Shown here: positions 15,720 to 17,543 of the stretch, in pieces | How positions within the stretch are numbered: position 1 is the first letter of the stretch | Layout of the letters: each line of letters opens with the position of its first letter | Origin: Candidatus Omnitrophica bacterium UBA1562 | GTDB taxonomy: Bacteria > Omnitrophota > Gorgyraeia > Gygaellales > Profunditerraquicolaceae | Reading direction: 5' to 3' | NCBI GenBank assembly: GCA_002322525.1 | Contig: DCOU01000038.1 | Span: forward strand, 1 to 26,387 | DNA: 26,387 nucleotides | Program-made: the position numbers and the translations under genes | Notes under the pieces: model-generated | Told to the model about the DNA's origin: nothing | Databases searched by the model: none | Seen by the model: only the letters and a program-made list of their open reading frames with translations

Positions 15720-17543
15720 TTAGTATAAATATGAATTTAAGACATATTGCTGAACCATGCGATGGGTATTAAAGAATGAAGCATTAATGGCTATGGAATG
15801 CCGCATTATTTCAATCCATCCATCTCTGTTATTATAAAACATTGGTACAATTATTTTTTCTAATTTTTCATATAATTCTCCCGCGTCACTTCTGCTATCA
15901 CTTCCCACATCTGTCGCCTTGGGTCCGATAGACCAACCAGTTACACCTTCAATGTGTCCTTCTAACCACCAGCCATCTAAGACACTAAAACTGGGGACAC
16001 CGTTATGCGCTGCCTTCATCCCCGATGTACCTGAGGCCTCATTTGGCCTTTGAGGGGTATTTAACCATAAATCTACTCCCGAAACGAGCATCTTTGCTAA
16101 TTCTATGTCATAATTTTCCAAGTAAATAACCTTAATGTTGCTCTTTAATTGATCTGTATACGAAAAAATCCTTTTAATCAACTCTTTCCCTGGCCAGTCT
16201 TGCGGATGGGCTTTGCCGGCAAAGACAAATTGAACTTTACCAATCTTGTGGGAAATGCGCATCAAGCGATCTATATCAGAAAATACCAAATCCGCCCTCT
16301 TATATGTAGCTGCTCTCCTGGCAAATCCGATAGTTAAGGCGCCATAATCAAAACCATGGTTTAGATAGTCAATTAATTTCTTTTTGGCCTCTGTATGGGC
16401 AGCCCATATTTCAATCTTCGGAATGTTTAAGGCATATCTTAGACTAAAAGGGTCATTTGCCCAGCCAGGAATGTATTTGTTAAACAGCCTCTTAAAACTA
16501 TCGCAAGTCCAAGTATAAGAATGCACGCCATTAGTTATGGACTCGATGTGATACCCCGGGAACATAGACTGAGAAACCTCGCCATGCTTCTTAGCCACAC
16601 CGTTTATATATTTACTTAAATTTAAAGCGAGCAAAGTCATATTTAACCTGTCTTCACCGGCAAGCATCTTTAAAACATCGAGAGGCAGGAAATCTCCCAA
16701 TGCCCTTTTCACTAAATCATAGAGGAACTGATCATGGCCTGCTGGCACTGGAGTATGAGTAGTGAATACACAAAGGTCTCTTACGGCTTCAAAATCCCAT
16801 ATTGGCGCTTCTTTTCTCTTTCGCTCATTTAACAATTCCAACGTTAACAGCGCAGCATGCCCTTCGTTCATATGGTACTTTTTTATTTCGGTGTAACCTA
16901 ACGCATTTAACATACGCATACCTGCGATACCTAAAATAATTTCCTGAAGCAACCTATACCATTGGTCTCCGCCGTAGAGATAATCGTTAAGCCCTCTATC
17001 GTATTCGCTATTCTCTTTTAGGTCAGTATCTAAAAAAATAATGGGGACAGTGTGCCCGGATATGCCTTTAACATCATACTGCCATGCCTGAATGGCTACG
17101 GTTCTATTCTCAATCTGGACACTAACCTTATTGGGTAATGGTTTTAAAACATCCTTGGGGTTCCATTCTAGAGGCAATTCTTGCTGGTTCCCCTGAGTGT
17201 CTAATTTTTGCTCAAAATAACCCTTTTCATACAATATAGTAACTGCCACCATCGGCACTTTTAAATCTGCGCAGGACTTTATAGCATCTCCGGCTAAAAT
17301 ACCTAATCCTCCACTATAGGTTGGAATTGATGAGTCAATTCCTATTTCCATCGAAAAATAGGCGATTCTTTTTGCTTTCTTATCTTCAATAGAGGCCGAG
17401 GTATGTTTTTGTCTTAAAAATTTTTCTGGTGAATTCTGAAATTCATCTTTACAGAGGTTTGAGCAGAAATAAAATACTTCACCTTTATATTCGTATTTAA
17501 ATTCTTCTTTTGCGGTCATCCCGCAAATTGGGTCCTTAGCCAT
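15720..17543 (-). CDS. glgP: YHS domain fused to a short-form alpha-glucan phosphorylase (GT35)
   Basis: N-terminal KDPICGM...[17 protein letters not shown], then [65 protein letters not shown] (PLP Lys) and LDGWW. Confidence 0.93.

Follow-up and report, generated by a model that had tools for sequence, protein, structure and literature searches.

The DNA analyzed here (the window) is the whole 26,387-nucleotide contig DCOU01000038.1 of Candidatus Omnitrophica bacterium UBA1562, and our subject is a single gene within it that joins a YHS domain to a short-form alpha-glucan phosphorylase inside a copper/heavy-metal efflux island. We found that the fusion recurs across phyla, that its candidate metal ligands and catalytic motifs are intact, and that it keeps company with metal-efflux genes. 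On balance, we lean toward reading the gene product as a copper-controlled YHS-phosphorylase that would feed the energy supply during metal stress.

A preliminary description of this DNA had proposed that one open reading frame (ORF) holds the YHS domain, a linker, and a complete phosphorylase, and matches to PF04945 and TIGR02094 bear this out. A start-codon scan found in-frame ATG, GTG, or TTG codons only at positions 1, 9, and 65 of the ORF and none within the linker. The codon 65 start sits inside the invariant FSME motif itself, so that an unfused enzyme could not be made from an internal start, in agreement with the earlier statement that no alternative start precedes FSMEIG. The ORF opens straight with the YHS domain, without a hydrophobic leader, and its product is thus predicted to be cytoplasmic. 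The gene has its own ribosome-binding-site-like AAGGA and is separated from the start of copA by a gap of 4 nt, both as previously described. A promoter and terminator scan detected no terminator in this gap, and its 48 promoter-like sites, against 40 expected, were not above chance. The two genes may be co-transcribed; none of the sequencing runs listed for the gene was of RNA. Contigs of other groundwater metagenome runs (which may include the source samples) crossed the YHS/catalytic and phosphorylase/copA junctions with 0 differences, making an assembly chimera unlikely.

The YHS domain was matched by the Pfam model PF04945 with 48.1 bits against a gathering cutoff of 30.3 (E 1.2e-12; model positions 2 to 46 of 47). 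We took the candidate ligand assignment for YHS domains, Asp/Cys-x2-Cys ... Cys-x3-Cys, from the literature (PMC4626032), and the same set is present in the fused domain. In an alignment of 43 fused homologues with 54 to 92% identity, D4, C7, and C31 were kept in all 43 and C27 in 42, and G8, M9, F26, S28, and F35 were likewise invariant, while the linker (residues 44 to 57 in this alignment) was variable in sequence. An AlphaFold model built on the homologue alignment gave a predicted local distance difference test (pLDDT) score of 73 to 89 over residues 1 to 40, so that the YHS domain is confidently folded. The catalytic body is also well folded (mean pLDDT of the whole model, 85), and the linker is predicted to be disordered (pLDDT below 50 at residues 45 to 53). 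Docking of YHS residues 1 to 48 against catalytic residues 55 to 607 returned a score of 0.00, which is evidence neither way. Judging from sequence and model, the YHS domain is probably a cytoplasmic candidate metal-binding module on a flexible linker.

The remainder of the protein resembles known short-form alpha-glucan phosphorylases over its full length. The NCBIfam model TIGR02094 spans residues 60 to 606 on model positions 1 to 599 of 600 (576.2 bits; cutoff, 191.7), and PF00343 matches with 97.9 bits. The motifs YSGGLG (position 76), NEGH (226), GKAHP (443), and EASGTSGMK (502 to 510) are all present, the last of them containing the EASGTSxxK lysine of the family. In an alignment of 51 fused and unfused sequences, most of the catalytic-motif residues are invariant, and conservation of the others is 90% or higher. 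The motifs also align with those of a solved alpha-glucan family phosphorylase (PDB 9l6i, one of the solved long-form relatives). We take K510, the lysine of EASGTSGMK, to occupy the pyridoxal-phosphate lysine position of GT35 enzymes. The fused phosphorylase is 58 to 81% identical to unfused short-form enzymes of related lineages, and it is predicted to be a catalytically competent short-form alpha-glucan (glycogen/maltodextrin) phosphorylase. Unlike typical TIGR02094 members, it carries a candidate metal-binding domain, and the typical enzymes are almost never found near metal-efflux genes (55 unfused loci).

The preliminary description had raised, as its alternative, an accidental fusion after a deletion in this one genome. 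A domain architecture search argues strongly otherwise. About 100 of the best 120 protein clusters combine PF04945 with PF00343, at 66 to 92% identity, and their source names include Jettenia, Kuenenia, Brocadiae, Omnitrophota, Elusimicrobiota, Ignavibacteriales/Ignavibacteriota, Glassbacteria, and Syntrophaceae. Among 80 loci from GTDB species representatives, fused genes were also found in Nitrospira, Ramlibacter lithotrophicus, Myxococcales, Sedimentisphaerales, and Sericytochromatia, which brings the architecture to at least eight phyla. A fusion by local deletion or an assembly chimera confined to this genome is therefore so improbable that we rejected it: more than 100 clusters share the architecture, the junctions are spanned by contigs from other runs, and there is no internal start codon from which a separate enzyme could begin.

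When a tree was built from the catalytic region, the 23 fused genes all grouped in one clade of 30 rows with a Shimodaira-Hasegawa-like approximate likelihood ratio test (SH-aLRT) value of 99. The fused or unfused label requires three changes on this tree, a number that one gain and two losses would account for. Since the clade mixes phyla, the gene appears to have moved horizontally. Forty relatives from the genus, family, or order of this bacterium all lacked the fusion and held unfused enzymes at 58 to 72% identity or a distant paralogue. One unfused gene nested in the fused clade, in locus L008 of our comparison set (L008:9962-10040), starts with MDRILHDPVYKM (HDPVYKM), apparently a degraded copy of DPVCGM, and this remnant suggests that its YHS domain was lost by deletion. 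Full-text literature searches found no paper on a YHS domain joined to a glucan phosphorylase. Automatic domain annotation does show the architecture, and what is new here is the combination of three familiar elements, an enzyme family, a sensor-type domain, and a type of island, not a new category.

Comparison of gene neighborhoods tied the fused gene to metal-efflux islands across phyla, extending what the earlier description had seen in one genome. Genes for CusCBA-type pumps, P-type ATPases, or YHS proteins lay within 10 kb at 17 of 20 fused loci and at 2 of 55 unfused loci (Fisher P value of 6e-12, which is descriptive only and ignores kinship). Because the fused genes have effectively one origin, this count overstates their independence. 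The weight lies in the linkage persisting through very different gene orders and partners. When the set was enlarged, 13 P-type ATPase genes lay near fused genes, every one of them on the same strand and 10 within 3 kb. The copA gene is directly downstream of the fused gene here and in an Elusimicrobiota contig and is one or two genes away in some related islands. CusCBA genes stand beside it in Ignavibacteria, Sedimentisphaerales, and Nitrospira, and P2-type ATPase orthologues (53 to 56% identical) do so in Jettenia, Brocadiaceae, Nitrospira, and the L113 island. These P2-type (not heavy-metal) ATPases were located at L002:4934-7711 and L113:3244-6030 and in L020, L021, L022, L025, L006, and L004; at the Brocadiae loci, they are accompanied by a radical-SAM gene. 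A complete CsoR gene (PF02583) heads two of the related islands, L114 and L120. The closest homologues of the fused gene (81 to 85% identity) reside in islands that share the DUF1573, YHS, cupredoxin, RnfD-like, and mini-protein genes of the window.

Within the window itself, the island genes, from the CsoR fragment through the RnfD-like protein, all lie on one strand (Table 1). The CsoR repressor named in the preliminary description is present only in part. A CsoR-family fragment stands at the head of the island and is 46% identical to the C terminus of a PF02583 protein that a related island encodes, but only its last 41 residues are present, since the contig end cuts the gene. Control of the island by a CsoR-type repressor is thus a prediction from a truncated gene about 9 kb upstream of the phosphorylase, at the contig end. 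All three YHS domains of this genome sit in the island, and the phosphorylase domain alone lacks a hydrophobic signal-peptide-like leader. The base composition of the island is the same as that of the rest of the contig (GC fraction, 0.35 to 0.44), with no compositional sign of recent transfer.

Table 1. Features of the window, with positions counted from its first nucleotide
Feature	Positions	Strand	Basis or remark
YHS + linker + short-form alpha-glucan phosphorylase (GT35, TIGR02094)	15720..17543	-	Single ORF, 607 aa
Phosphorylase catalytic region, residues 60-607	15723..17366	-	Family motifs intact
K510 codon, lysine of EASGTSGMK	16014..16016	-	Invariant in 51-sequence alignment; matches equivalent motif of 9l6i
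Variable linker, residues 46-59, about 14 residues	17367..17408	-	pLDDT, homologue alignment, start-codon scan
YHS domain, residues 3-45; candidate metal ligands D4, C7, C27, C31	17409..17537	-	PF04945
AAGGA, ribosome-binding-site-like	17552..17556	-	8 nt 5' of phosphorylase ATG; read from sequence
copA, Cu-type P1B ATPase, two HMA domains, CPC motif	13241..15715	-	TIGR01511, 634 bits
CsoR-family repressor, C-terminal 41 aa, cut by contig end	26262..26387	-	Homology
Outer-membrane efflux protein, CusC-like	24940..26259	-	Homology
CusB-like membrane fusion protein	23786..24943	-	Homology
CusA/CzcA-family heavy-metal RND pump	20544..23777	-	TIGR00914, 1034 bits
122-aa YHS protein, signal-peptide-like N terminus, His-rich tail	19842..20210	-	Domain match and sequence
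43-aa mini-protein, lipobox-like ISGC motif, His-rich tail	19701..19832	-	Sequence and conservation
DUF1573 + two rhodanese domains	18460..19644	-	65% identical to L117 orthologue
DUF1573 protein	17733..18443	-	70% identical to island genes of L116 and L117
42-aa Cys-Cys mini-protein (WWKRLVEKW...PSCC), just upstream of phosphorylase	17589..17717	-	Conserved in related islands
ArsP_1 permease remnant, C-terminal 85 aa	12897..13154	-	Homology
YHS + CuA-type cupredoxin protein, signal-peptide-like N terminus	12364..12882	-	Domain matches
Short RnfD-like membrane protein	11820..12314	-	Homology

Several smaller features of the island recur elsewhere. The ISGC mini-protein (about 40 residues) is conserved at L113:6753-6875 and L116:2551-2673, has a Gly/His-rich tail ending in HH, and adjoins the YHS protein with the signal-peptide-like N terminus. 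The Cys-Cys mini-protein, also of about 40 residues and with the pattern M-x-WWKRLVEKW...MWKG-x-x-PSCC, has relatives at L113:7034-7174, L115:1-111, and L120:930-1049. It is found directly 5' of the YHS-phosphorylase in three islands and directly after CsoR in a fourth, and its amphipathic helix and Cys-Cys pair suggest a small metal-binding peptide. Downstream of copA, the ArsP_1 remnant has a full counterpart in L117, a 372-residue YHS-ArsP_1 fusion, and the 164-residue RnfD-like piece matches residues 42 to 142 of 247-residue RnfD-like island proteins, making it a second gene remnant. Due to these two remnants, the adjacency of copA in this genome may stem from a recent rearrangement. The rest of the contig carries heme synthesis and redox stress genes. 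A redox/nitrosative-stress cluster adjoins the island (positions 5695 to 11563, minus strand) and encodes two Rrf2 regulators, a hybrid-cluster (prismane) protein, a 4Fe-4S protein, an HD-domain protein, and two rubrerythrins.

Sugar-catabolic genes occur in some of the related islands, and they fit the idea that storage carbon is mobilized. L114 and L115 encode a pyruvate kinase of 321 to 343 residues without the C-terminal domain (L115:3304-4269), and L115 also has a PfkB-family hexose/phosphofructo-kinase with a C-terminal YHS domain (L115:7143-8228). The PfkB-YHS architecture is widespread, with about 70 clusters, many or most of them from Omnitrophota, and represents a second sugar-catabolic enzyme bearing the same metal module; it was not found in the 74% complete genome to which the window belongs. 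In L120, an island with CsoR at its head, phosphoketolase, transaldolase, and RpiB directly follow the YHS-phosphorylase (L120:9859-13836), and in L114, a full F-type ATPase operon follows copA (L114:15140-21827). Two further proteins of related islands, one a thioredoxin-reductase-like enzyme and the other a PilT-like ATPase, each have an N-terminal YHS domain (L115:9161-10207, L120:3960-5021, and L115:5609-7081). A 144-residue Pyr_redox_2 fragment in the window (positions 6344 to 6778, minus strand) is 43% identical to part of the YHS-reductase and is possibly another remnant. With its glgA, glgC, GH57, and phosphoglucomutase genes, the genome of the window could plausibly supply a glucan substrate.

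We compared the fusion with characterized systems. In the class IIIc adenylyl cyclase of Mycobacterium phlei, Cu2+ at 1 to 10 uM activates the enzyme only if its YHS domain is present, which makes the domain a copper sensor in that protein (Linder 2015, PMC4626032). Like that cyclase, our protein couples an enzyme to one YHS domain through a short linker, with the same candidate ligands (Asp-x2-Cys ... Cys-x3-Cys). The cyclase, however, has a C-terminal YHS domain, a linker of 8 to 11 residues, and cyclic AMP signaling as its output, whereas the domain here is N-terminal, the linker has about 14 residues, and the partner is a metabolic enzyme; the likeness is one of architecture alone. With its CopA P1B ATPase, CusCBA-like pump, and CsoR-family fragment, the island resembles CsoR-regulated copZA systems and the Cu(I)/Ag(I) efflux system CusCFBA of Escherichia coli. 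Unlike these classical systems, which include no carbohydrate enzyme, it holds a phosphorylase, and YHS proteins stand where CopZ or CusF would be expected. The domain itself shares a small, cysteine-based, treble-clef-like metal-binding fold with the TRASH/YHS domains of Cu-ATPases, with archaeal CopM/CopT-type proteins, and with ribosomal protein L24e; in a crystal structure cited in PMC4626032, L24e binds Cd through the equivalent residues. These relatives are transporters, chaperones, regulators, and a ribosomal protein, unlike the catabolic enzyme here. A copper transcriptome of Synechocystis, in which an ordinary, non-island glgP is repressed at high copper, has no bearing on the fusion.

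If the phosphorylase is copper controlled, we would picture the following. A rise in cytoplasmic thiophilic metal, most likely Cu(I), would cause a CsoR-type repressor to release the island. Additionally or instead, metal bound at D4, C7, C27, and C31 would switch the enzyme, as Cu does for the M. phlei YHS cyclase. The enzyme would then free glucose-1-phosphate from stored glucan, and this sugar phosphate would yield substrate-level ATP and reductant while CopA, driven by ATP, and CusCBA, driven by the proton motive force, pump. Energy metabolism that depends on Fe-S clusters is copper sensitive, which would make glycogen a useful reserve.

Several observations weigh against this picture. Next to fused genes, the pump is in many cases a P2-type (non-copper) ATPase, a Na/Ca exchanger, or a CusA/CzcA-family member of ambiguous specificity, so that “copper” may be too narrow a label. 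A 10-kb scan found no metal genes near the fused genes of L009, L016, and L039. Of the loci searched, L114 and L115 alone contained pyruvate kinase or YHS-PfkB, which are not a core feature. For the association of YHS with metal context, only two to three phylogenetically independent contrasts exist, too few for a sign test to reach significance. The YHS domain of toluene-4-monooxygenase was without bound metal in its crystal (PMC4626032). Finally, no second phosphorylase was found in the 74% complete genome, so the fused gene might serve the housekeeping role here. A second phosphorylase gene is present in each of four fuller genomes that carry the fusion, and the one in Jettenia is clearly unfused.

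The main rival to copper control is that the fusion arose once and has simply traveled with mobile metal resistance islands, in which case the enzyme would be an ordinary glycogen phosphorylase unconnected with metals and the YHS domain a structural, zinc-ribbon-like fold or a leftover. The single clade with its few independent contrasts, a tree incongruent with the phyla and suggestive of horizontal spread, the lack of fused forms among the 40 close relatives, the gene remnants that mark the island beside copA as rearranging, and the metal-free monooxygenase domain would all be expected of such a passenger. Nevertheless, among homologues as distant as 54% identity, 42 to 43 of the 43 retain each ligand although the linker sequence changes, and the linkage to pumps survives many different gene orders and partners. 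Other catabolic enzymes of the same islands carry YHS domains as well. Moreover, the nested unfused genes (L007, L008, and the L014 group) have no metal genes in the sequenced flanks (less than 1 kb for L007), and L008, with its DPVYKM remnant, implies that the domain was lost when the context was lost. We therefore regard a mere passenger as unlikely.

Another possibility is that the YHS domain handles metal for its neighbors, buffering Cu(I) or passing it as a chaperone or sink to CopA or CsoR, or that it shuts the enzyme off under excess. Small stand-alone YHS proteins are abundant in the same islands, the gene is translationally close to copA across the 4-nt gap, and the linker looks flexible in the model, all of which would suit a chaperone. 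Against it, the islands already possess free YHS proteins, there is no reason why a 550-residue enzyme should be retained across phyla to carry a chaperone domain, and in the sole experimental precedent for a YHS domain on an enzyme, the effect is activation (PMC4626032). Metal handling thus seems to us quite unlikely. Glucose-1-phosphate might also be spent on protective sugars, such as trehalose or envelope polysaccharide, under cation stress and not on energy. The gene after the fused one encodes a TreT-type trehalose synthase in L004 and a GT4 glycosyltransferase in Ramlibacter, and in Nitrospira, a GH57 enzyme is encoded nearby. Such neighbors are sporadic, with none in the window, and the pyruvate kinase, PfkB, and phosphoketolase neighbors point to catabolism. 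We hold such a building-block role to be very unlikely.

Taken together, copper control of the phosphorylase, possibly by activation, remains the reading toward which we lean. More tentatively, and with some doubt on our part, the YHS domain may be a portable Cu(I) switch that has been placed on control points of reserve carbon and on other enzymes, forming a posttranslational “copper stimulon” encoded on efflux islands. The glycogen phosphorylase, the PfkB kinase, the thioredoxin-reductase-like enzyme, and the PilT-like ATPase may be examples, and the carriers may be uncultured, mostly anaerobic or microaerophilic bacteria. If this is true, glycogen would serve as a dedicated, Fe-S-independent energy reserve for ATP-driven pumps under copper poisoning. 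To our knowledge, known copper responses work through transcription factors, chaperones, and pumps; a toxic metal directly controlling a central catabolic enzyme would be a new layer of metal homeostasis. The carriers are environmentally important and include anammox bacteria, nitrite-oxidizing Nitrospira, and groundwater Omnitrophota. In many of them, the role of glycogen storage is unclear, and it would become linked to survival of metal stress. Should the YHS domain prove to be a general switch, it could also find new uses as a compact, metal-responsive protein domain.

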